NCBI GenBank assembly: GCA_041657425.1
Contig: JBBABY010000005.1
Span: forward strand, 22,834-86,833
Direction of reading: 5' to 3'
Source of the DNA: an archaeon
GTDB lineage: Archaea > Iainarchaeota > Iainarchaeia > Iainarchaeales > CSSED10-239
Length of the DNA stretch: 64,000 nucleotides
In this document: one piece after another, positions 5,271 through 17,667 of the stretch
How the letters are laid out: each line of letters begins with the position of its first letter
Position numbering within the stretch: position 1 is the stretch's first letter
Position numbers and translations under genes: made by a program
The notes under the pieces: generated by a model
What the model was told of the DNA's origin: nothing
Seen by the model: only the letters and a program-made list of their open reading frames with translations
Database searches by the model: none

Positions 5271-6461
5271 ATGAACATATTAGTAATTAATGCAGGAAGC
5301 AGTTCCTTAAAGTTTCAATATATTAATCCAGATACAAAAGCTGTATTAATTAAAGGAAATTATGATGGAATAAATAGAAGCGACGGTAACCCTTGTTTGA
5401 AAAAGATTTCAATTTCTGGCCACAGCACAGTTGATAATTTAATTATTGTAAATCACGAGCAAGCAATTGAAGATATGCTTGTAACATTAACTGAAAAAAA
5501 AGTAATTACGAGATTTTCAGAAATAGAATTTATTGGACATAGAGTTGTTCATGGAGCAGAAGAATATTCAAAAACTACAGAAATTACTGATCAAATGTTA
5601 GAGTCTTTAAAGATTGTTTCTTTTTTAGCTCCACTTCATAATCCAATAAATATTAAATGTATAGAAATCTTAAAAGAGAAATTGCCAGAAGCAAAACAAT
5701 ATGCAGTATTTGACACCGCTTTTCATCAAACAATGCCTGATAAGATTTTCTTGTATGCCTTACCAAAAGACTTATATGATAAATTCAAGATTAGAAAATA
5801 TGGCTTTCACGGAATAAGCCATCAATATGTTTCTAAGCAAGTTGCTGAAATTCTAAATAAAGACTATAATAAATTAAATATAATAACTTGTCATTTAGGT
5901 AACGGTCAAAGCATTTGTGCAATCAAACAAGGAAAGAGCTATGACACCTCTATGGGCTTTACTCCTGTTGATGGGCTTCCAATGGGAACAAGAAGTGGAA
6001 GTTTTGATCCCGAAATTATTCTTTTCCTTTTAGAGAAAGGCTACACTAAAGAAGAAATTAAAAATCTAATAAACAAGAAGTCAGGACTTCTAGGAATAAG
6101 TCAAATAAGCAGTGATCACAGGCAAATTGAAGAACTTTCAAAAAAGGGATTTTTGTTTGCAAGACTTGCTAATGATATTCTTAACACAAGAATAATAAAC
6201 ATCATTGGAAGTTATGCCGCAGAAATGAATGGAGTAGACGTTATTGTTTTTACTGGCGGTATTGGAGAAAAATCAGCTTACTTAAGAGAACAAATTCTTG
6301 AAAACTTTACTTATCTTGGTTTAGAGATAGACAAAGCAGCAAATGACGAACACGAATTAATAATCACAAAACCAAACAGCAAAGTAATAGCAATGGTAAT
6401 TCCAACAAATGAAGAATTAGAAATTGCAATAGAAACAAGTGAGAAAATAAGAAAAGGTTAA
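5271..6461 (+). CDS. ackA: acetate kinase
   Basis: Near-canonical acetate kinase signatures: ILVINAGSSSLKFQ, GHRVVHG, FDTAFHQTMP, ITCHLGNG, VFTGGIGE, IPTNEELEIA. Confidence 0.88.
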   Translation: MNILVINAGSSSLKFQYINPDTKAVLIKGNYDGINRSDGNPCLKKISISGHSTVDNLIIVNHEQAIEDMLVTLTEKKVITRFSEIEFIGHRVVHGAEEYSKTTEITDQMLESLKIVSFLAPLHNPINIKCIEILKEKLPEAKQYAVFDTAFHQTMPDKIFLYALPKDLYDKFKIRKYGFHGISHQYVSKQVAEILNKDYNKLNIITCHLGNGQSICAIKQGKSYDTSMGFTPVDGLPMGTRSGSFDPEIILFLLEKGYTKEEIKNLINKKSGLLGISQISSDHRQIEELSKKGFLFARLANDILNTRIINIIGSYAAEMNGVDVIVFTGGIGEKSAYLREQILENFTYLGLEIDKAANDEHELIITKPNSKVIAMVIPTNEELEIAIETSEKIRKG

Positions 6462-8510
6462 TTACTTTTCATTTCCCATTTTTTCTAATTTCAAAAGTTC
6501 ATTCCATCTTCTGTCTATTTCTTCCTGTATTGATTTAAGAACTGCTTTATTCTCTGGTTTTAAAACACTTTTAAATTTAGTTTGTGTTTTTAAGAATTCT
6601 TCAATTGGTAGTTTGTTTGTTGGTTTGTAATTGATAATTACTTTTCCATTAACCACTTCATAAAGAGGCCAAAAGCAAGTTTCAGTTGCAAGTTTACTTA
6701 TCTTAATTGTTTGTGAAGAATCTGCCTTCATGTTTGTTGGGCAAGCTGCAAATGCAATTAGAACTGCAGGGCCAGAAACATCAAATGCTTTCTTTGCTTT
6801 TTCAAATATATCAACTTGGTTAGAAGGATTAATTTGAGCAACATAAGGAATGTTATGAGCTGCTGCAATCTTTGTTAAATCTTTTGAGAACTCTACTTTA
6901 CCATAAGAACACTTCCCTGAAGGAGTTGTTGAGGTTATTGCACCCTTTGGCGTTGCTGAGCTTCTCTGGTTGCCTGTGTTGTGTACTACAACCCCATCAG
7001 CAATGAAATTATGTTCTCCTTCAACTCTTAAATCAAAGGTTTGTTCTTTGCCAACTTCTTTAATATTTTTTATAATTTCAGTATCGAAGTTTTCATTTCC
7101 AATCAAAAAGTTTTGATATTTATATTGTGTAGGATATTTAGTTGTATTCCAATAATCTTTTTTACTAAAACAAATATAGTGATATTCTGAATTTTTCAGT
7201 AATTTCTTTCCAACGACAAGAGTTCCTTTTTCTTTTTTTTGAGTTGTAATTTTACCAACTCTGTAATTAAGTGTCTGTAATAATAATCTTAATCTTAAGA
7301 TTAATTCTTTACTTGCAGACACATATCTACAACTATCTTTTTTCTTTTTATGAATATACCCGTCAGATAACAACAACCCTTCAATAAATGCTTCTTTTTG
7401 CTCATCTGGAATCGTATAAACCCAAGAAGGAATTATTTTATTCTTTGCACCTTTGTTAAATCCAAGGGATTCAATAAATTTAGTTATGTTAACTGAATTC
7501 ATATAGATGTAAGTTTTATCAGTAGTAATTGTCTTAAATCCAAATACTTTTTTACAAGTAGTTATACATTTTTCTCTACCCTCTGTTCCTTCAGGTAAGG
7601 CAAAACCTATTTCTCCTTTATCTCTAATCCAACCATCTCCAAGATAAAGTCCTAAGAATAACATTAAATCTGTTGTTGATTTTTCTGGTATTTTTACATC
7701 ATTAATTACATTTACTTTATAATCGCCTTTCTTTGAAAGTTGTATTTTTTCAAAAGTAAACGGTTTATTTCCTTTTAATTTCTTTAATGTAATTATTTGA
7801 TCTCCTTTTTTTAATTCTTCAAGTGTTTTCCAAATTAAAGTGTTTGGTTTTCCTCTTGGAAGTTTATTAACAACTAAGAATGGGTGATTTCCTGTTGCTT
7901 TGATGTTATGATGAAAAGTTTCAATTTCATAAACTTTCTTAACTCCATTATCAAACACACCACTGCATTTTTTCAGAACCAATTTGTGTGTTTTTTGATC
8001 AAATGCATAAACCATTTCTCCAACTTTAATTTCAGTTATTTTTTTAAGTCCGGTTTCTGTGTAAATTAATGAGTCTTTACTTAAGCAATTCATGTACCCT
8101 TCATTCGAATAACAAAGATAAACAAAATCATGTCCTCTTTCTAGTGCTCCAGATAAACTTTGAAGACCAATATCAAAACTTCCACCATCTCCAGCAATTA
8201 CTAAAAAATTAATGTCTTTTTTTATTTTTCCTTTTTTCTTTTGTGCTCTGTATGCACTTTCAACTCCAGAAATTGTTGCGGCAGAGTTTGCAAAAAGAGA
8301 ATGTATCCAAGGAATATTCCATGCAGTCTGTGGATAAACTGTTGTTGTAACTTCTGCACAAGAAGTTGCGCTGCTTGCAACAACTGGTTTGTCGCTTGCC
8401 GCAATCACAGTCTTACAAATAATTGCAATGGGGCACCCTGCACAAGTTCTGTATCCTGGAACCATTGCTTTACTTTCAGCTAATTTAATAGCAAGTTCTT
8501 TTGAGTTCAT
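6462..8510 (-). CDS. porB: pyruvate/2-oxoacid:ferredoxin oxidoreductase beta subunit (TPP-binding), intein-containing
   Basis: Exteins match PorB (IAGDGG, YLCYSNEGYMN|TGNQRS); a 370-aa insertion begins with Cys and ends in HN followed by Thr. Confidence 0.85.
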   Translation of the reverse strand: MNSKELAIKLAESKAMVPGYRTCAGCPIAIICKTVIAASDKPVVASSATSCAEVTTTVYPQTAWNIPWIHSLFANSAATISGVESAYRAQKKKGKIKKDINFLVIAGDGGSFDIGLQSLSGALERGHDFVYLCYSNEGYMNCLSKDSLIYTETGLKKITEIKVGEMVYAFDQKTHKLVLKKCSGVFDNGVKKVYEIETFHHNIKATGNHPFLVVNKLPRGKPNTLIWKTLEELKKGDQIITLKKLKGNKPFTFEKIQLSKKGDYKVNVINDVKIPEKSTTDLMLFLGLYLGDGWIRDKGEIGFALPEGTEGREKCITTCKKVFGFKTITTDKTYIYMNSVNITKFIESLGFNKGAKNKIIPSWVYTIPDEQKEAFIEGLLLSDGYIHKKKKDSCRYVSASKELILRLRLLLQTLNYRVGKITTQKKEKGTLVVGKKLLKNSEYHYICFSKKDYWNTTKYPTQYKYQNFLIGNENFDTEIIKNIKEVGKEQTFDLRVEGEHNFIADGVVVHNTGNQRSSATPKGAITSTTPSGKCSYGKVEFSKDLTKIAAAHNIPYVAQINPSNQVDIFEKAKKAFDVSGPAVLIAFAACPTNMKADSSQTIKISKLATETCFWPLYEVVNGKVIINYKPTNKLPIEEFLKTQTKFKSVLKPENKAVLKSIQEEIDRRWNELLKLEKMGNEK
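6978..8087 (-). other. intein with LAGLIDADG homing-endonuclease domain inside porB
   Basis: Starts CLSKDSLIY, ends VVHN with +1 Thr; LAGLIDADG-type blocks LFLGLYLGDGW and IEGLLLSDGY; interrupts the conserved PorB motif YMN-TG. Confidence 0.75.
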
Positions 8511-8513
8511 GTT

Positions 8514-9674
8514 TTATTCCTTTTCTTTTTCAAATCTGTGTTTTTTATAATTATCAACCATCGCTAAAATTAAATCTCTAAATGCTGGATTTTTTATAAC
8601 ATCGTTATTATTAGGATATGCAGATTCTTTCTGTCTGCCTTTAGAGGGGTTAAATAAAATTGCATCAATTTTATTTTCCCCGTCTAATTTTAATGTGCTA
8701 GGTAATTGCTTTGTTCCATCACGCATGCTCCAATCATAACCTATAAGTTTTGAATTTATGTTACTATCAGATAATACTCGACGAATCGGATATTGCATAT
8801 ATGTCCAATCATCGGATCTTGCAGCTGAAGAATATCCAACAAATGATGCTGGCATTTTCTTACTATCACTAGCATCTACAAATATAAAAACTGGATCTTT
8901 ATATTCTTGTTTATAATTATTGATAAATTTCATAAACGTATTAACAATTATTCTTGTTTTTGTTCCATCTCCAACTTCTCCATATCTTCGATCAGGATTA
9001 CTTGAAGGATATTTAAATTTATCTACAATTACTTTTTTACCATCTGGTTTAATTGACCAAGTATAAGGCACACCAGTACTTGCAATACCTACCACAACTA
9101 TTGGTCTTTTTGTAAGTTTTGAAATTCTATTTACAAAAAATTCAGTAATTAAAATCTCTTTTCTAAAGGAGTTCATAAATTCAAAATCAGAAAAGTGCAA
9201 TTTATATTTGTAAAACACTTCTTCTATTTCTTTTTCTAGTTCGTAACCATCTTTAATTTTTCCTGCTCTCACTTTTTCAAATAAAATATTAAGATCTTTT
9301 AGTATTGGAGAATTCACTTGATTAATAGAATTTATATTTAAGTCTGAAATCTGGGATAATATTTCATTAAAATATACTTTCTCTCTTAATAATTGTTCTA
9401 TTCCTAACTTTTCTAAACTTGTAAATACTTTGTTTTCCATATCGCTATACTTGGACGACTGCCAATAGTACCGGCTATTTAATATACGTCTAACTTCTTC
9501 TCTAAGGCGATGTATGCCAATTTTGTTATTCCTTATTTTTTCAAACAATTCGTTTAAATCCTTTAATATTGGACGCCCTTTTAGTTCTGCAGGATTTATT
9601 TTTGAATGTGTAATAGATAGTAATAATTCATTAAATTTGTGAGGCCCATCAGGTTTACGATTTAATTTAGGCAT
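8514..9674 (-). CDS. hypothetical protein with internal tandem repeat, embedded in por operon
   Basis: 386-aa ORF between porA and porB (stop 4 nt before porB start); duplicated roughly 30-aa motif (PILKDLNELFEKIRNNKI / PILKDLNILFEKVRAGKI); no family recognised. Confidence 0.5.
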   Translation of the reverse strand: MPKLNRKPDGPHKFNELLLSITHSKINPAELKGRPILKDLNELFEKIRNNKIGIHRLREEVRRILNSRYYWQSSKYSDMENKVFTSLEKLGIEQLLREKVYFNEILSQISDLNINSINQVNSPILKDLNILFEKVRAGKIKDGYELEKEIEEVFYKYKLHFSDFEFMNSFRKEILITEFFVNRISKLTKRPIVVVGIASTGVPYTWSIKPDGKKVIVDKFKYPSSNPDRRYGEVGDGTKTRIIVNTFMKFINNYKQEYKDPVFIFVDASDSKKMPASFVGYSSAARSDDWTYMQYPIRRVLSDSNINSKLIGYDWSMRDGTKQLPSTLKLDGENKIDAILFNPSKGRQKESAYPNNNDVIKNPAFRDLILAMVDNYKKHRFEKEKE

Positions 9675-9695: not shown

Positions 9696-10877
9696 TTATT
9701 CCTTAATTCCAATATATCTGCTTTTTAGTTTCTTTCCTGCAATTACAGAAACTAAAAGTTCTTCAATATCTTTTTGATAAATGTCTCTTCCACCAAGTCC
9801 AAAGACTAAGGACATTACTTCTGGTTTATTTGTTGTATTCATTACTGTTAAACAAATATCTTTGTAAAGAGGAGGATAACTTCCTGGCCCTTCAGTTCTT
9901 TCAAGAACAATTATTTTTTTTGCTTTCTTTAAAGCTTTTGAATATTCTTCATAAAGGAATGGTCTGAATAATATTGGTCGCAAAAGACCAACAGATTTTC
10001 CTTCTTTTCTTAATTTATCAATAACATCTTTTGAGCTTTCTGCTGTTGAACTTAATACAATAAGAACTGTTTCTGAAGAACTTGCAAAATAATCTTCATA
10101 AAAATTAATTTCTTTTCCAAAATTATTTTTAAATTCTTTAGAAATTTTTGAATAGTTGTCTTTAACTTCCAAAAAAGCATCAAACATTTGTTTTCTTATT
10201 TCCATGTAACTGTCAGGTAAAGCAAGAGCACCAATAGTTATTGGGTGATCAGTGTCAAGAAGATTATATTTAGGTTTAAATTCTCCTACAAATTTTTTAA
10301 CAGTTAAATCATCATAAACATTAATAACTTCCATATTGTGGCTTGTGTAAAATCCATCAATACAAACCATGATCGGAAGAGATACTGATTCTGCAAGTTT
10401 TAATCCAAATAATGTCATCTCATAAGCTTCCTCGGCATTCTCACAATACACTTGCATCCAACCTTGGTCAATAGCAGACATTGAGTCACTGTGATCACAA
10501 TGAATGTTAATCGGCGCAGAGATTGCTCTATTAGCCACAGGCATAACTATTGGAAGTCTTAAACCACTAGCGACACTAAGTGCTTCATACATGTAAAGTA
10601 AACCTTGAGAAGCAGTAGCTGTAACTGCTCTAACACCTGCAGCACTTGCACCAATGGTTGCTGAAAGAGCAGAGTGTTCAGATTCTGTTCTAATTAATTC
10701 AGTGTCAACAAGCCCATTAGCAGAATACTTAGCATAACTTTCAATGATTGGTGTTTGAGGAGTAATTGGATACATTGCAAATACTTCTGGGTTAATTTGC
10801 TTTAATGCATAAGCAATTGCTTCTCCACCACTTAAACCTAATTTTGTTGTTTTCATTCCTTCACCATCTTTATACAT
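9696..10877 (-). CDS. porA: pyruvate:ferredoxin oxidoreductase alpha subunit
   Basis: POR N-terminal and domain II signatures (GGEAIAYA, YPITPQT, SEHSA). Confidence 0.85.
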   Translation of the reverse strand: MYKDGEGMKTTKLGLSGGEAIAYALKQINPEVFAMYPITPQTPIIESYAKYSANGLVDTELIRTESEHSALSATIGASAAGVRAVTATASQGLLYMYEALSVASGLRLPIVMPVANRAISAPINIHCDHSDSMSAIDQGWMQVYCENAEEAYEMTLFGLKLAESVSLPIMVCIDGFYTSHNMEVINVYDDLTVKKFVGEFKPKYNLLDTDHPITIGALALPDSYMEIRKQMFDAFLEVKDNYSKISKEFKNNFGKEINFYEDYFASSSETVLIVLSSTAESSKDVIDKLRKEGKSVGLLRPILFRPFLYEEYSKALKKAKKIIVLERTEGPGSYPPLYKDICLTVMNTTNKPEVMSLVFGLGGRDIYQKDIEELLVSVIAGKKLKSRYIGIKE

Positions 10878-13006: not shown

Positions 13007-14353
13007 TTGAAAACACTAGAAAAATACTTTAAACCACATACAATTGCAATAATTGGGGCCTCTGATAAGCAGGCAAGTATAGGTAATACCCTCGCTAAGA
13101 ACGTAAGCAACTATAAAAGAAAAGTATTTTTTGTAAATCCTAGATTGTCAGGAAAGAAAATATTAAATAAACAAGTTTTTGCAAGTATTCTAGAAATCAA
13201 AGAAACAATAGATTTAGCAGTTATTGCAGTTCCTGCAGTTGCTGTGATTTCTGTTATTGAAGAAATTGCAAAAACTAAATGTAAGAACATATTAATGGTG
13301 ACTTCTGGTTTTTCAGAGATTGGAAGAATCGACATTACTGAGAATATAAAAAAATTAATAACAAAACACAAAATAAATCTAGTGGGTCCAAATTGTTTAG
13401 GTTTATTAAATCTAGAAAATAATTTAGATATTACATTTAATGACAGAAATAAATATGATTTGCCAAAAGTAGGAAGAACATCAATAATTTCTCAGTCAGG
13501 CGCTCTTGGTCTTGCACTTTTAGATCTCTCAAGTAAAGAGCAATTAGAAATTAATAAGTTTATTTCATATGGTAATGCATTAGATGTTGATGAAAGTGAT
13601 TTATTAGAGTATTTTTATACTGACAAAAGCACAGACCTAATTCTTTGTTACATTGAAGGAGTGCAAAACGGGAAGAAGTTCTTTGAAACATTAAAGAAGG
13701 TTACAAAGAAAAAGAAAGTTATAATTTTAAAAGGCGGAATCTCAGAGAAAGGAACAACAGCAGTTAAGAGTCACACCGCAGCAATTGCCGGTTCTTCAAA
13801 AGTTTTTTCTACAGCAGTTAAGCAAGCAGGAGCAAAAGAAGTAGATAATATTAGAGATTTATTTAATCTTGCAAAGTTTTATTCTTGGTACAAAACAAAT
13901 AAGATGGAAAATATTCAGATAATAACTAATGGTGGGGGGTTTGGCGTAATTACAACAGACCAATTAGATTTACAAAAAATAAAGTTGGCAGAAACTACAA
14001 AAGAAACAAAAGAAAAAATAAAAAAGATTGTTCCAATCTATGCGACAACCACAAACCCAATTGATTTAACAGGGGATGCCGATAATGCCAGATTCTGTAA
14101 AGTTATTGATATTTGTTTAAAAGACAAAAATGTTTCAGCAATTGCAGTATTAATGCTTTTGCAACTACCGAGTATTTCTTCTTCAATTGTTAATGAGATT
14201 GCAAGCAGAAAATCAAAAACACACAAATCAATATTTTTAGTATCAGTTGGTGGAAGTAAAACCGATAAGCAATTAGCAGATTTTGAAAAACAAAAAGTAC
14301 TATGTTTTAAAGACCCAAAAGATCTTTCAAGGATTTTAAAACAAATTATTTAA
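13007..14353 (+). CDS. acetyl-CoA synthetase (ADP-forming) alpha subunit / CoA-binding ligase domain protein
   Basis: N-terminal CoA-binding Rossmann motif (IAIIGASDKQASIGN, LVGPNCLGL) and succinyl-CoA-ligase-like domain; TTG start. Confidence 0.7.
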   Translation: MKTLEKYFKPHTIAIIGASDKQASIGNTLAKNVSNYKRKVFFVNPRLSGKKILNKQVFASILEIKETIDLAVIAVPAVAVISVIEEIAKTKCKNILMVTSGFSEIGRIDITENIKKLITKHKINLVGPNCLGLLNLENNLDITFNDRNKYDLPKVGRTSIISQSGALGLALLDLSSKEQLEINKFISYGNALDVDESDLLEYFYTDKSTDLILCYIEGVQNGKKFFETLKKVTKKKKVIILKGGISEKGTTAVKSHTAAIAGSSKVFSTAVKQAGAKEVDNIRDLFNLAKFYSWYKTNKMENIQIITNGGGFGVITTDQLDLQKIKLAETTKETKEKIKKIVPIYATTTNPIDLTGDADNARFCKVIDICLKDKNVSAIAVLMLLQLPSISSSIVNEIASRKSKTHKSIFLVSVGGSKTDKQLADFEKQKVLCFKDPKDLSRILKQII

Positions 14354-14598
14354 ATTGCTTTTACTTTTCTTTTTGGACTTTCAGCTTTATCTTTGTGTTT
14401 TAATAGTTGGTTAATTTCCAGAAGCAGTTCTTTTTTCTTTAGTCCATACATTTCACAGACATCGCCAATTTCTAAATTGTCAATTTCTATTTTTGCCATT
14501 GGACAACTTACGCAAGGGACTTTGTGTTTAACTAGTACTTTTTCCATTCCCTTAAGTTTCATTATCTTTTCTAATTTTGTATGTTCGTCTACTTTCAT
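14350..14598 (-). CDS. DUF1858-type small redox-disulfide protein
   Basis: VPCVSCPMAKIEIDNLEIGDVCEMYGL matches the DUF1858 CxxCP motif; sits immediately downstream of iscU. Confidence 0.55.
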   Translation of the reverse strand: MKVDEHTKLEKIMKLKGMEKVLVKHKVPCVSCPMAKIEIDNLEIGDVCEMYGLKKKELLLEINQLLKHKDKAESPKRKVKAI

Positions 14599-14612: not shown

Positions 14613-16208
14613 TTATTTTTTACAATTTTTTTCTTTATGACAACAGGAGCAGTTATCATTATGTGTTATTTCTAATATTTTTCTTCCTTGTTTGGAATAA
14701 TAATCATTAATTGCTGCTTGAAGTGCATCTGCTGCTAAGTTAGAACAGTGCATTTTAATTGGTGGCAAGCCGTCAAGAGATTTTGCAACATCTCCTCTAG
14801 TTATTTTAAAAGCATCATCTAGAGTTTTACCTTTAGCAAGTTCAGTAACCATAGATGAGGTTGCAATTGCTGCTGCACAGCCAAGTGTCTTAAACTTAAT
14901 ATCTTGAATAATTTCTTTTCCGTCTTTGTTTTTTGAAACAGTAATGTATAACCACATTATATCTCCACAATTATGAACAGTAAAAGCATTTGTGTTGTAA
15001 GAATGCGAAGTATCTATTTCTAAATTATACACTTTGCCGGAATAGTTTTCTGTTTTTTTAAAAGTAATGGGGGTATATAAAATGTTTTTATCTATCCAAG
15101 AGTTTATTGCTTCTGGTCTTAGATTATAAAAAGTAACTTCAATAATTTTAGCAAGTTTTGTTGTAGATTCTTTATCGCCCACGTGTATTCTATAACATTC
15201 TTGATGTTTTTGCTCTTTTTTATCTGTTTTTTCTTTTTCTGTATATATTGATGGAATAATTCCTTGTCTTAATAATAATATTTTAAGTTTATGGACTAAT
15301 TCCTTAGATATAGTAGAATATCCCCCCCTTGGTATTTTTGTATTAAAGAAACCATCCCCTTTCCAAATACCATAAATTAAAGATTTTTGTTTTTCTGGAG
15401 GCAATGTCATAAACATATCTGGTATATCTTTATTTTTAGCACCAGATTTAAATAACTCTTTAAATAATTTAACTATAAAAACGCTATTTATATAAACTAC
15501 TTGAGAATGTTGAGTTTCATTTTTTTTAATAATTGGGGTTATTCCAAAAATTTTTTCTGAAATTCTAACCACGTCTTGTGCAAGATTATTTTCTTTTAAA
15601 TTAAAACAAAATGCTATATGCACATTATTTGTTTTATCAAAATAATATCCTTCTGAAAGATAATATCCTGCTAATCTTAAAAAATCTGAATCTAATTTTA
15701 TTTTTGAAGGTATTGATTTACTATTGTGATCAAATTTCTTTTTTTTGGTATTTACTTCTAAGTAATCAACATCTTTTGTATCAGATAGTATTGCATATAA
15801 AATTAAGTCGCCTTTATCTAGTTGTTCTGCGTGATACCAGGCCGGAATTAATGTTTTTTTATTTTTCGTTCTTAAAAATTTATCTCCTTTAGGGATTTTT
15901 ATTGCATAAACAAGATGTTCTTTAGTTAATTTTATTTCTCCTAGTCTGTTTTTTAGAACAATAATTGGTTCAGAAATAACTCTTTTGTAAGTTTCAGTAA
16001 CTGAATGATACTTCCCATCATGACTTATAATAAAATCATTTTTTTTTATATCTTTAATTTTTTTTAGTTTTAAATTAGTGTGTATATTTGTATCTTTAAA
16101 CAAGCATTTAGGATTTCCTACCTTTCCAACTCCGTCAGCATTTTCAATCTCTCCAAGGTTTTGTGGTTTTAAGAAATTTTCCATAACTTTTTTTGAATAG
16201 TTTTCCAT
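14613..16208 (-). CDS. iscU: Fe-S cluster scaffold IscU/NifU-like, intein-containing
   Basis: Exteins MENYSK...GNPK | CGDIMWLYI ... GCAAAIATSS ... HCSNLAADAL are IscU; a 379-aa insertion sits between them. Confidence 0.85.
   Translation of the reverse strand: MENYSKKVMENFLKPQNLGEIENADGVGKVGNPKCLFKDTNIHTNLKLKKIKDIKKNDFIISHDGKYHSVTETYKRVISEPIIVLKNRLGEIKLTKEHLVYAIKIPKGDKFLRTKNKKTLIPAWYHAEQLDKGDLILYAILSDTKDVDYLEVNTKKKKFDHNSKSIPSKIKLDSDFLRLAGYYLSEGYYFDKTNNVHIAFCFNLKENNLAQDVVRISEKIFGITPIIKKNETQHSQVVYINSVFIVKLFKELFKSGAKNKDIPDMFMTLPPEKQKSLIYGIWKGDGFFNTKIPRGGYSTISKELVHKLKILLLRQGIIPSIYTEKEKTDKKEQKHQECYRIHVGDKESTTKLAKIIEVTFYNLRPEAINSWIDKNILYTPITFKKTENYSGKVYNLEIDTSHSYNTNAFTVHNCGDIMWLYITVSKNKDGKEIIQDIKFKTLGCAAAIATSSMVTELAKGKTLDDAFKITRGDVAKSLDGLPPIKMHCSNLAADALQAAINDYYSKQGRKILEITHNDNCSCCHKEKNCKK
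14970..16106 (-). other. intein with LAGLIDADG homing-endonuclease domain inside iscU
   Basis: Begins CLFKDT, ends FTVHN with +1 Cys, which is the first Cys of the IscU CGD motif; LAGLIDADG blocks LRLAGYYLSEGY and IYGIWKGDGF. Confidence 0.75.
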
Positions 16209-16219
16209 AATCTTTTCAC

Positions 16220-17362
16220 CTAATATTTATAAGGACACATTTCTCTTAATTTTTTAATTGTGTCTTTAACAGTGTCAACAGTATATTTAATTTCTTCTTT
16301 AGTATTATCAATTCCTACAGAGAATCTAACAGTTCCATGAGTTTGTTCTTGTTTTAATCCTATTGCTCTTAAAACATGACTTGGTTCAAGAGTATTAGAT
16401 GAACAAGCAGAACCAGTTGAAACTGAAATTCCTGCAGCATCAAGATACAAAAGTATTGCTTCTCCTTCTGCATACATGAAACTCAAATTAGCATTATTAC
16501 ATAGCCTTTTATCTTTTGAACCATTCAACCAAGACTCTTCAACATCTGATAATCCTTTAATCAATTGATTTCTAAGATTAGTCATATGTTCAATTTCTTT
16601 TTCTCCAATGATGTCGGTTGCTTTAGAAAAACCAATTATTCCAGGAACATTAACAGTTCCGCTTCTTAAATTATATTCGTGTCCTCCACCATGAAGAAGC
16701 GGTTCTAATTTTATTCCTTCTTTAATAAATAATCCTCCAACACCTTTAGGTCCATAAATCTTATGAGCATTAATTGTTAAAAGATCAATATTGTCTTTCT
16801 CAAGGTTAATTGGAGCTTTTGTAAAACTTTGACAAGCATCTGAATGGAAAAGAGTTTCTTTTTCATGGCAAATTTTTCCAATCTCTCTTAAGTCTTGAAT
16901 AGTTCCAATCTCGTTATTTCCATGAATTACAGAAACTACAAGTGTGTCTTTTTTAATTGCCTTTTCAAGTTGGGAAAGATTAACAAAACCTTCTTTATCA
17001 ACATCAAGATATGTTACAGAATATCCTTTTCTTTCAAGAAACTTATAAACATTAAGAATACTATCGTGTTCAATCTTTGTTGTAATAATGTGTTTCTTAT
17101 TTTTGTTATTTTCTGCTAGCCCCTTAATTGCAAAATTATTACTTTCTGTTCCTCCAGAAGTAAAGATTAGTTTGTGATTTTTGCTATTGGCCTTCTTTGA
17201 AATGTGCTCTCTTGCTTTATCTAGTTCTGCTTTAGCTTCGCGACCAATTGTGTGAAGACTAGAGGAATTTCCGAAGTATTTTTCTTCTGCGTCAGTTATT
17301 GCTTTCATAACAGATGAATGCATCTTTGTTGTTGCTGCATTATCTAAATAAATTGATTTCAT
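16220..17362 (-). CDS. iscS: cysteine desulfurase
   Basis: Class V aminotransferase/NifS signatures (YLDNAATT, SSLH, SGGTESNN, active-site region SACSS). Confidence 0.9.
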   Translation of the reverse strand: MKSIYLDNAATTKMHSSVMKAITDAEEKYFGNSSSLHTIGREAKAELDKAREHISKKANSKNHKLIFTSGGTESNNFAIKGLAENNKNKKHIITTKIEHDSILNVYKFLERKGYSVTYLDVDKEGFVNLSQLEKAIKKDTLVVSVIHGNNEIGTIQDLREIGKICHEKETLFHSDACQSFTKAPINLEKDNIDLLTINAHKIYGPKGVGGLFIKEGIKLEPLLHGGGHEYNLRSGTVNVPGIIGFSKATDIIGEKEIEHMTNLRNQLIKGLSDVEESWLNGSKDKRLCNNANLSFMYAEGEAILLYLDAAGISVSTGSACSSNTLEPSHVLRAIGLKQEQTHGTVRFSVGIDNTKEEIKYTVDTVKDTIKKLREMCPYKY

Positions 17363-17667
17363 TTCTTTTCCTCTTTTTTACAGCATTTATTTTTACAAAA
17401 ATCTTTTGTGTGTTGATTAACGATCTTAACAAGTGGTTTAATTGTTTTCTTGTTTAAGGAATAAATAATGTTCTTTCCTTGTCTTTTAGAAAAAACAATA
17501 TTGCAATTAAGAAGTTGTTTTAAACTATGGCTAACCTTTGATTGTTCTTCTCCAGTAATTGTACTTATTTCAGAAACTGTTTTTTCAGACTTATAAAGTA
17601 GCTTAATTATTTTCCATCTCGTCTTGTTGGAAATAACTCCAAAGAAATTATATGATAAACATTTCAT
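17359..17667 (-). CDS. ArsR/SmtB-family HTH transcriptional regulator
   Basis: wHTH region KTRWKIIKLL...TVSEIS; first gene of the ArsR-iscS-iscU cluster. Confidence 0.65.
   Translation of the reverse strand: MKCLSYNFFGVISNKTRWKIIKLLYKSEKTVSEISTITGEEQSKVSHSLKQLLNCNIVFSKRQGKNIIYSLNKKTIKPLVKIVNQHTKDFCKNKCCKKEEKK

Follow-up and report, generated by a model that had tools for sequence, protein, structure and literature searches.

Inteins have been catalogued mostly in replication and repair proteins and in a few metabolic proteins, and the one studied case in iron–sulfur (Fe-S) cluster biogenesis is, to our knowledge, that of mycobacterial SufB. For the Mycobacterium tuberculosis SufB intein, a role as a redox-sensitive switch has been proposed (Topilina et al. 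2015 PNAS, PMC4547236, as cited in PMC4760082). Here we describe an intein in a gene for the other major scaffold, IscU/NifU, on the minus strand (positions 14613..16208) of a 64,000-nucleotide stretch of DNA from an archaeon of the Iainarchaeota, which we call the window (GenBank assembly GCA_041657425.1, contig JBBABY010000005.1, positions 22,834 to 86,833; coordinates below count from the first letter of the window). The element had been pointed out in an earlier reading of the letters without database searches, referred to here as the sequence-only reading. It appears to be a genuine class-1 intein, with a LAGLIDADG homing endonuclease nested in it, that resides in an iscU/nifU-type gene of a low-GC archaeon, and we put the probability of this at roughly 0.85. 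Full-text literature searches found no paper on an IscU/NifU intein, although a listing, for example in InBase, is still possible, and the main text of the intein survey PMC4760082 makes no mention of one.

Insertion point and anatomy of the IscU intein

The open reading frame (ORF) at 14613..16208 is a single open frame of 531 codons plus stop, encoding a 531-residue precursor of 60.8 kDa whose sequence runs MENYSKKVMENFLKPQNLGEIENADGVGKVGNPK / CLFKDTNIH...NAFTVHN / CGDIMWLYITV... (here and below, slashes mark the junctions between exteins and intein). Searched against Pfam, the full precursor matches NifU_N as two separate stretches, along with LAGLIDADG_3 (E=1e-13, above cutoff), Hom_end, and Intein_splicing, the last at 32.2 bits and thus under its cutoff of 35.8. 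Removing residues 35–413 in silico leaves a 152-residue product in which NifU_N (PF01592) becomes one stretch covering positions 2–125 of 127 (E=9e-45; 152.4 bits, cutoff 22). The spliced product aligns end to end (60–70% alignable) with the Methanothrix IscU structure 7c8m (E=1.5e-51) and also with Archaeoglobus IscU 4eb5, and its CGD, G-C, and H-C ligand motifs are matched in both. Against the NCBIfam equivalog NifU_clost (TIGR03419), it scores 185.8 bits, marginally missing the cutoff of 187.9, so we file the host as a general IscU/NifU-like protein and not as a NifU_clost equivalog.

A search with the spliced sequence retrieved three intein-free proteins, P0121, P0122, and P0123, that are 94%, 90%, and 86% identical to it over the whole length. 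All three read GNPR-CGD or GNPK-CGD without a gap (P0121 has ...GNPRCGDILW...), and the gapless, 94% identical orthologue P0121 fixes the insertion point to the residue. Consistent with this, in 120 of 120 intein-bearing homologues the match to a profile made from intein-free IscU is interrupted at position 35/36 (Cys36); these 120 precursors match at E values from 1e-158 to 0, which excludes chance. The intein is inserted between Lys34 and the cysteine of CGD, the first of three cluster-ligand cysteines, at a position that we call site a. In IscU, ligand roles are described for D39, H105, and the three cysteines (PMC13423590). Cys414 of the precursor thus has a double role, as first ligand of the Fe-S cluster and as nucleophile of the C-extein.

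The features of the precursor gene are as follows, with intein numbering counted from its first residue.

14613..16208, minus strand: iscU precursor gene, an IscU/NifU-type Fe-S scaffold split by the intein (stop codon counted in).
16107..16208, minus strand: N-extein, residues 1–34, ending ...VGNPK; matches the N terminus of intein-free IscU P0121 and of PDB 7c8m.
14970..16106, minus strand: intein, precursor residues 35–413 (379 residues, 44.1 kDa, pI 9.5), a HINT domain with a LAGLIDADG endonuclease nested inside, as placed by Pfam, alignment, AlphaFold2 (AF2), and Foldseek.
16074..16106, minus strand: block A with intein Cys1 (precursor Cys35), the first nucleophile; invariant in 121/121 sequences.
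15903..15941, minus strand: block B, LTKEH, with precursor Thr95 and His98 (intein T61 and H64); invariant columns in alignments A1 and A2.
15642..15683, minus strand: first LAGLIDADG motif, FLRLAGYYLSEGYY, with acidic residue intein E152 (precursor E186); G147 and G153 invariant, E152 in at least 90%; AF2 helix 140–152.
15345..15386, minus strand: second LAGLIDADG motif, KSLIYGIWKGDGFF, with acidic residue intein D251 (precursor D285); W248, G250, D251, and G252 invariant.
14988..15038, minus strand: block F, GKVYNLEIDTSHSYNTN, with Asn where many inteins carry Asp; G357 and V359 invariant, N361 in at least 90%.
14967..14987, minus strand: block G, AFTVHN, plus the +1 Cys (His412, Asn413 / Cys414; +1 codon at 14967..14969); HN/CGD in 121/121, aligned to the CGD of 7c8m and 4eb5.
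14613..14969, minus strand: C-extein, residues 414–531, starting CGD; supported by Pfam and by alignment to solved IscU.
14862..14888, minus strand: second ligand of the C-extein, LGCAAAIA.
14733..14756, minus strand: His-Cys of the C-extein, KMHCSNLA.
14622..14651, minus strand: Cys-rich tail of the C-extein, CSCCHKEKNC.

The Cys-rich tail is kept as C..CC....C in close relatives with or without the intein and is absent from solved IscU structures; the AF2 model gives it low confidence, with residues 517–531 below 50 in predicted local distance difference test (pLDDT) score.

To the window protein we aligned its 120 best homologues, 48–92% identical, for a total of 121 sequences. Cys1, the terminal His-Asn, and the +1 Cys-Gly-Asp are kept in every one of them, and invariance extends to Thr and His in block B and to Gly and Val in block F. 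The glycines of the first LAGLIDADG motif (LRLAGYYLSEG) do not vary, and its Glu is present in at least 90% of sequences; in the second (YGIWKGDG), W-G-D-G is invariant. Both motifs are helical in the AF2 model. The sequence-only reading had split the IscU exteins after GNPK, with the intein starting C-L-F and ending H-N and a +1 residue that is the cluster-ligand Cys of CGD. These assignments prove correct to the residue, and alignment of the exteins with intein-less IscU (gapless P0121, profile break in 120/120) confirms the insertion point. Its statement that both LAGLIDADG blocks are retained is borne out by the LAGLIDADG_3 match and by the two conserved acidic residues, and the residues of blocks A, B, F, and G are present, block F with its Asn in place of the common Asp. 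Its label of a "catalytic Cys" needs correction, as this residue is a cluster ligand and not catalytic.

The AF2 model of the intein, built on an 18-sequence intein alignment, has a pLDDT of 92.3 and a predicted template modeling (TM) score of 0.91. When we compared it with the PDB using Foldseek, the top matches were all endonuclease-bearing inteins, with TliVMA best (E=1.4e-24, TM 0.72), followed by PhoVMA, PI-SceI, PI-PkoII, and PI-PfuI and then by free-standing LAGLIDADG enzymes such as I-DmoI. A sequence-profile search likewise matches PI-PkoII (E=2.5e-18). In the model of the whole precursor (pLDDT 87.3), the exteins have an IscU-like predicted secondary structure around the intein; this model says only that extein and intein folds are compatible, and nothing further.

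Selection, empty alleles, and mobility

The endonuclease domain evolves with a ratio of nonsynonymous to synonymous divergence (dN/dS) of 0.12–0.19 in five comparisons among four sequences, and the splicing domain is similar. Extein dN/dS is 0.09–0.18 in intein-bearing alleles and 0.05–0.13 in empty ones. Synonymous divergence (dS) between the window and locus L073 is 0.26 for the intein (bootstrap 0.19–0.35), 0.45 for the exteins, 1.45 for the downstream ORF, and 1.07 (0.86–1.37) for an acetyl-CoA-synthetase-like gene. Against locus L074, it is 0.61 for the intein (bootstrap 0.48–0.79), 1.07 (0.81–1.54) for iscS, and 1.34 for arsR. The intein thus has excess synonymous similarity, with a dS up to about fourfold below that of flanking genes and non-overlapping bootstrap intervals in this small sample, and the intermediate dS of the exteins fits co-conversion during homing. 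Comparison of GC content among intein (25%), exteins (32%), and window (about 29%) gave no compositional signal of foreign DNA.

Presence/absence polymorphism occurs at one orthologous locus, where P0122 (L075) is empty and P0002 (L074) is occupied in the same gene order. In a set of 54 sequences, made up of the window and 53 genome loci, intein identity correlates only weakly with extein identity (r=0.40). The sharpest discord is between two complete chromosomes of Atabeyarchaeia (Asgard), L036 (CP147779) and L067 (CP147780; match at 6001..7140), in which the exteins are 95% identical and the site-a inteins 66% identical, indicating independent intein invasion or replacement. Selection, low dS, empty alleles, and intein/extein discord are four lines of evidence that the element is mobile now, or at least was until recently. 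The earlier suggestion that the intein is probably still an active homing endonuclease gains backing from these same lines and from the acidic residues.

An alternative is that the intein splices and its endonuclease no longer homes, the element being a vertically inherited passenger in which the domain is retained for folding or splicing. The age and wide spread of the allele would suit a passenger, site-a mini-inteins (see below) show that endonuclease loss is possible, and purifying selection could stem from a constraint on precursor folding. We nonetheless find this improbable. Acidic residues are conserved in both LAGLIDADG motifs (D251 invariant, E152 in at least 90%), and a scaffold role needs neither; the low dS of the intein relative to flanking genes points to recent movement; empty alleles occur in orthologues that are 86–94% identical; and the Atabeyarchaeia sister genomes differ far more in their inteins than in their exteins.

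Several points weigh against reading the element as a class-1 intein with a homing endonuclease. Block F reads VYNLEI, with an Asn that is nearly invariant in the family (at least 90%) at position 4, where Asp is common, though not universal, in class-1 inteins. The block F Asp is not required in all class-1 inteins, so we regard the Asn as a variant rather than as grounds for exclusion. At the DNA level the comparison covers no more than two empty alleles and three close relatives that bear the intein, dS is imprecise once it approaches or exceeds 1, and AT-rich composition could account for part of the low intein dS. That the endonuclease domain is under purifying selection means that it serves some use, which is not proof that it cuts DNA. 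Splicing itself is deduced from residue conservation and from purifying selection on the exteins of intein-bearing alleles, and DNA cleavage by the intein is likewise a deduction that stands apart from the observations above. Some taxon labels of the metagenome-assembled genomes (MAGs) discussed below are doubtful, and taxon counts are approximate.

From established intein chemistry and the conserved residues, we infer the following course for this class-1 intein. The ArsR–iscS–iscU–orf82 cluster would be expressed and iscU translated as the 60.8-kDa precursor. Cys35 would undergo an N–S acyl shift to form a thioester with Lys34, aided by Thr95 and His98 of block B, and Cys414, the future cluster ligand, would attack this thioester to give a branched intermediate. 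Cyclization of Asn413, with the help of His412, would then release the 44-kDa intein, and an S–N shift would restore the peptide bond in a 16.7-kDa IscU with its GNPK-CGD ligand loop intact. Because Cys414 would act as both nucleophile and ligand, the scaffold would not be complete before splicing, and an unspliced copy could not bind a cluster normally. The freed intein may cut intein-less iscU within the coding sequence for GNPx/CGD (consensus AAtCCnGTn/TGCGGnGAT), for which the candidate empty target site is GGAAATCCTAAA/TGTGGAGATATAATGTGG, or GTAGGAAATCCTAAA/TGTGGAGATATAATGTGG in synthetic-site form. Recombinational repair would then copy in the intein together with short flanking stretches of extein; RadA is encoded in the same window.

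Residues beside the junction vary among the alleles. The closest empty alleles, L072 and L075, have Arg at −1 and Ile-Leu at +4/+5 (CGC/TGTGGnGAyATnCTCTGG), whereas at −1 the four occupied alleles carry Lys or Thr, with Ile-Met following at +4/+5 (...AAA/TGTGGAGATATAATGTGG, in the window at 16095..16106 and 14952..14969). The third empty allele, P0123, has the occupied-type residues, and the −1/+4/+5 pattern is therefore not strict. The Arg(−1)/Ile-Leu pattern could mark cleavage-resistant sites or co-conversion tracts.

Distribution and related inteins

Our protein search recovered at least 120 clusters with the site-a IscU intein architecture. Scanning one genome per species with a pattern for the second LAGLIDADG motif yielded 71 loci, about 55 of which have the intein at the exact GNxx/C...HN/CGD position of IscU. 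Host labels among the DPANN archaea are Woese-, Pace-, Nano-, Micr-, Iain-, Aenigm-, Undin-, and Altiarchaeota; among Asgard archaea they are Borr-, Sif-, and Atabeyarchaeia, and Methanomassiliicoccales also occur. Bacterial labels comprise several lineages of the candidate phyla radiation (CPR)/Patescibacteria, Omnitrophota, Elusimicrobia, and Planctomycetia. The remark in the sequence-only reading that inteins in IscU are not a classic allele holds for the literature searched, yet the allele is very common in metagenomes. Relative to that literature, four things are new: the IscU/NifU host, two insertion sites that each fall on a ligand cysteine, a distribution that spans DPANN, Asgard, CPR, and Omnitrophota, and a sister element in an oxidoreductase subunit.

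Genomic context was verified at three loci, of which L013 and L004 are bacterial (bacterial-type GpsA and MnmA) and L005, a woesearchaeote, is archaeal (fibrillarin and Nop5). Two labels are doubtful: L016, "Falkowbacteria," carries NurA and archaeal-type exteins, and L015, "Methanosarcinales," is about 90% identical to L005. We considered and rejected an intein-only transfer across domains between the CPR locus L004 and L005, since their exteins (74%) and IscS proteins (68%) are as similar as their inteins (73%); the whole iscSU cluster is shared. Two further candidates, a decaying copy at L014 (1103..2238; the intein has a 1-nt frameshift, and the contig is covered about 6x) and a degenerate one at L048 (6001..6978; its sequence leaves that of the family 145 nt short of the end of the contig), more likely reflect errors of assembly.

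A second IscU intein site, site b, lies at the second ligand Cys (FKTFG/C...HN/CGAAIA), and in a Caldiserica IscU (L070, 20..1966, QMOP01000186) each of the two sites holds a full-length intein. The intein of site b, present also in P0391–P0510, gave 243 matches, many of them from Omnitrophota; it is common in Omnitrophota and Caldiserica and is full-length with LAGLIDADG motifs. Like the window intein, it resides in IscU with a cluster-ligand Cys at +1; unlike it, it sits 30 residues downstream and often coexists with a mini-intein at site a. The two are about 27% identical, and site-b inteins form a separate clade in a neighbor-joining tree. Around a dozen site-b proteins of about 640 residues combine the full-length site-b intein with an endonuclease-less site-a mini-intein of 144–159 residues, whose block F reads VYDLEV or VYNLEV (P0399, P0405, P0444, P0465, P0474, P0478, P0480, P0482, P0484, P0486, P0489, and P0496). 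With P0121-type, full-length, and mini-intein alleles all known, empty, full-length, and endonuclease-less states are each documented at site a.

Eleven of the 71 loci (L057, L058, L060–L066, L068, and L071) have a 32–41% identical intein in another protein, the thiamine pyrophosphate (TPP)-binding beta subunit of 2-oxoacid:ferredoxin oxidoreductase (OFOR), at ...NDWCPG/C...HN/CGD. Its hosts are ARMAN-4/5 (Parvarchaeota), hot-spring Nanoarchaeota, Thermoplasmata, and Nitrosocaldus, whose copies end in Ser-Asn rather than His-Asn. This is the closest sequence relative of the site-a intein outside IscU, and it shares the +1 tripeptide CGD; its host is non-homologous, and its N-extein ends in CPG and not in NPx. 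OFOR-beta inteins cluster with site-a IscU inteins in a neighbor-joining tree drawn without support values. The insertion-site DNA in OFOR-beta is TGGTGTCCAGGn/TGTGGTGAC; aligning iscU AAtCCnGTn/TGCGGnGAT with OFOR-beta TGtCCaGGn/TGtGGnGAC leaves T-CC-n-G-n-n/TG-y-GG-n-GA-y in common. Together, these data look like an intein jump between two non-homologous genes that share an x/CGD site. The intein homology explains why nr gives the name "2-oxoglutarate ferredoxin oxidoreductase subunit beta" to an IscU precursor from Parcubacteria.

The superfamily is large: a search of 1.84 billion cluster representatives gave 5659 matches at E≤1e-3, 132 of them at E≤1e-30. The nearest hosts other than IscU are OFOR-beta, UDP-glucose dehydrogenase, a methyltransferase, a pyridine-nucleotide-disulphide oxidoreductase, and an MptE-like kinase.

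The window itself holds a second intein, in a 682-residue ORF (6462..8510, minus strand) for the TPP-binding beta subunit of a pyruvate/2-oxoacid:ferredoxin oxidoreductase (POR). This 370-residue LAGLIDADG intein (about 6978..8087) splits the protein as ...CYSNEGYMN / CLSKDSLIY...GVVVHN / TGNQRSSATP, with Thr at +1. It matches a hidden Markov model of the IscU intein at E=1.4e-23 and is about 25% identical, and its site is unlike the ARMAN-type CPG/CGD. Between the genes for POR beta and POR alpha (9696..10877) lies a 386-residue ORF (8514..9674, minus strand) that has no Pfam or NCBIfam match and occupies the position expected for a POR subunit gene.

Genomic context, scaffold maturation, and known systems

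The iscU gene is the third in a cluster ordered ArsR, cysteine desulfurase, iscU, and an 82-residue ORF, and the same order is found at L074 and L075. Its neighbors are as follows.

17359..17667, minus strand: ArsR/SmtB-family metalloregulator, the first gene of the cluster (HTH_5 E=6e-13; NF033788 67.6 bits, cutoff 55).
16220..17362, minus strand: class-V aminotransferase, an IscS/NifS-type cysteine desulfurase (Aminotran_5 E=2e-83), 11 nt upstream of iscU.
14350..14598, minus strand: 82-residue CxxC protein directly downstream of iscU (weak match to TIGR03980, E=3.8e-6, below cutoff).

The iscS–iscU synteny is kept in L074, L075, L004, L005, and L013. TIGR03980 is the "hybrid cluster protein-associated redox disulfide domain"; the 82-residue protein keeps its position in L073, L074, and L075 and is fused in frame to IscU in P0006 (591 residues). 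This conserved position and the fusion suggest that it is a functional partner of the scaffold. The window, part of a 92.6-kb contig deposited as "MAG: archaeon," has archaeal gene content, including POR subunits, RadA, topoisomerase VI A and B, and a radical SAM protein of the Tyw1 type; scanned for Rfam families and tRNAs, it gave only five tRNAs, none relevant.

A reading compatible with mobility is that the intein has been co-opted as a switch, with a Cys1–Cys+1 disulfide or Fe/Zn bound at the junction delaying splicing and tuning the amount of active IscU. Redox traps between Cys1 and Cys+1 are documented in other inteins. At both IscU sites the +1 residue is a cluster ligand, and at the junction in the window Cys+1 and Asp+3 are metal ligands of the scaffold itself; the cluster opens with an ArsR-type metalloregulator and ends with a CxxC redox-disulfide-like protein; and the AF2 precursor model is predicted to keep an IscU-like extein fold around the intein. 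The analogy is with the SufB intein of M. tuberculosis, which is reported to sense oxidative and nitrosative stress (Topilina et al. 2015, as cited in PMC4760082). This support is circumstantial, however, and a selfish preference for conserved, hard-to-mutate active-site motifs explains the position without regulation. Close relatives also do well without the intein, which turns over rather than being stably inherited. We therefore view a switch as rather unlikely. Inteins at sites a and b might make Fe-S scaffold maturation depend on redox state or on iron or zinc, as a checkpoint in many reduced-genome DPANN, CPR, and Omnitrophota, a proposal that we regard as doubtful. Were it true, these inteins would constitute a self-contained post-translational checkpoint on Fe-S biogenesis.

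Whether a cell depends on splicing of this scaffold is a separate matter. No SufBC was found among the 20 largest ORFs scanned in the 64-kb window, which is part of a larger genome. In the woesearchaeote L005 (7600..9283), SufC-like and SufB/D-like genes come immediately after the iscU that bears the intein, an adjacency that places ISC-type and minimal SUF components in one cluster. The initial claim that splicing is obligatory for Fe-S assembly is thus reasonable for this scaffold protein and is not established for the cell.

Such coexistence of a second system also bears on the idea that the gene is a dead copy, iscU having been inactivated by an insertion that does not splice, while Fe-S clusters are made by another system, for instance SufBC; the L014 frameshift inside the intein would be in keeping with it. 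We consider this very unlikely, given that the 531-residue frame is open, that the catalytic splice residues are all invariant over more than 120 diverged sequences, that extein dN/dS with the intein can be regarded as the same as in empty alleles, and that the L014 frameshift, at about 6x coverage, is probably a sequencing error.

The gene is called differently across databases. In GenBank it is MFA5745906.1, a 139-residue protein (14613..15029) that starts MYNLEIDTSH in block F and omits the N-extein and 90% of the intein, whereas IMG, under the name "NifU-like," and ENA call the identical full 531-residue protein. The GenBank fragment could suggest separate genes, but an artefact of assembly or gene calling (a chimeric contig or two genes read as one) has a negligible chance of being correct, being refuted by the recurrence of this architecture in at least 120 independent clusters of proteins and in 55 genomes, the complete CP147779 and CP147780 included, that come from different studies and were built with different assemblers, and by the agreement of IMG and ENA. 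Other intein-bearing iscU genes are likely mis-called too, and counts of IscU can go wrong when the Fe-S pathways of DPANN and CPR genomes are surveyed by domain.

These observations make IscU/NifU a frequent intein host in uncultivated lineages, with two sites that each fall on a cluster-ligand Cys. For tests of conditional splicing, they offer a naturally occurring collection of Cys1/Cys+1 inteins in metal-binding surroundings. They also yield a family of compact endonucleases for which a candidate target site is defined, and a likely example of an intein jump between IscU and OFOR-beta at a shared x/CGD target. They should be of use to intein biology, to the study of Fe-S biogenesis in reduced genomes, and to annotation. 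In kind, the IscU intein is an ordinary PI-type intein, and it involves no new principle unless the conditional-splicing idea proves true.

Among structurally characterized endonuclease-bearing inteins of archaea and yeast, its counterparts are TliVMA and PhoVMA (7qss/7qsu/7qst), PI-SceI (1vde, 1lws), PI-PkoII (2cw7), and PI-PfuI (1dq3), which share the HINT domain with a nested double-LAGLIDADG endonuclease as well as Cys1, TxxH, His-Asn, and a +1 nucleophile (Foldseek E=1e-24 to 1e-16, TM 0.6–0.73). They differ in that identity is only 12–21%, that their hosts are V-ATPase, DNA polymerase, and ribonucleotide reductase rather than an Fe-S scaffold, and that the window element, known from its sequence, has Asn for the common Asp of block F. 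The M. tuberculosis SufB intein, as described in PMC4547236 (cited in PMC4760082) and PMC6034842, is similar in lying inside an essential component of Fe-S assembly, so that splicing precedes function; it belongs to SufB of the SUF system and not to an IscU/NifU scaffold, and to actinobacteria. The P-loop inteins surveyed by Novikova et al. 2016 (PMC4760082) offer a parallel for the pairing of IscU with OFOR-beta: there too, a short conserved functional motif harbors related inteins in different hosts that share it, with an ATP-binding loop in the one case and the metal- or cluster-binding x/CGD in the other.

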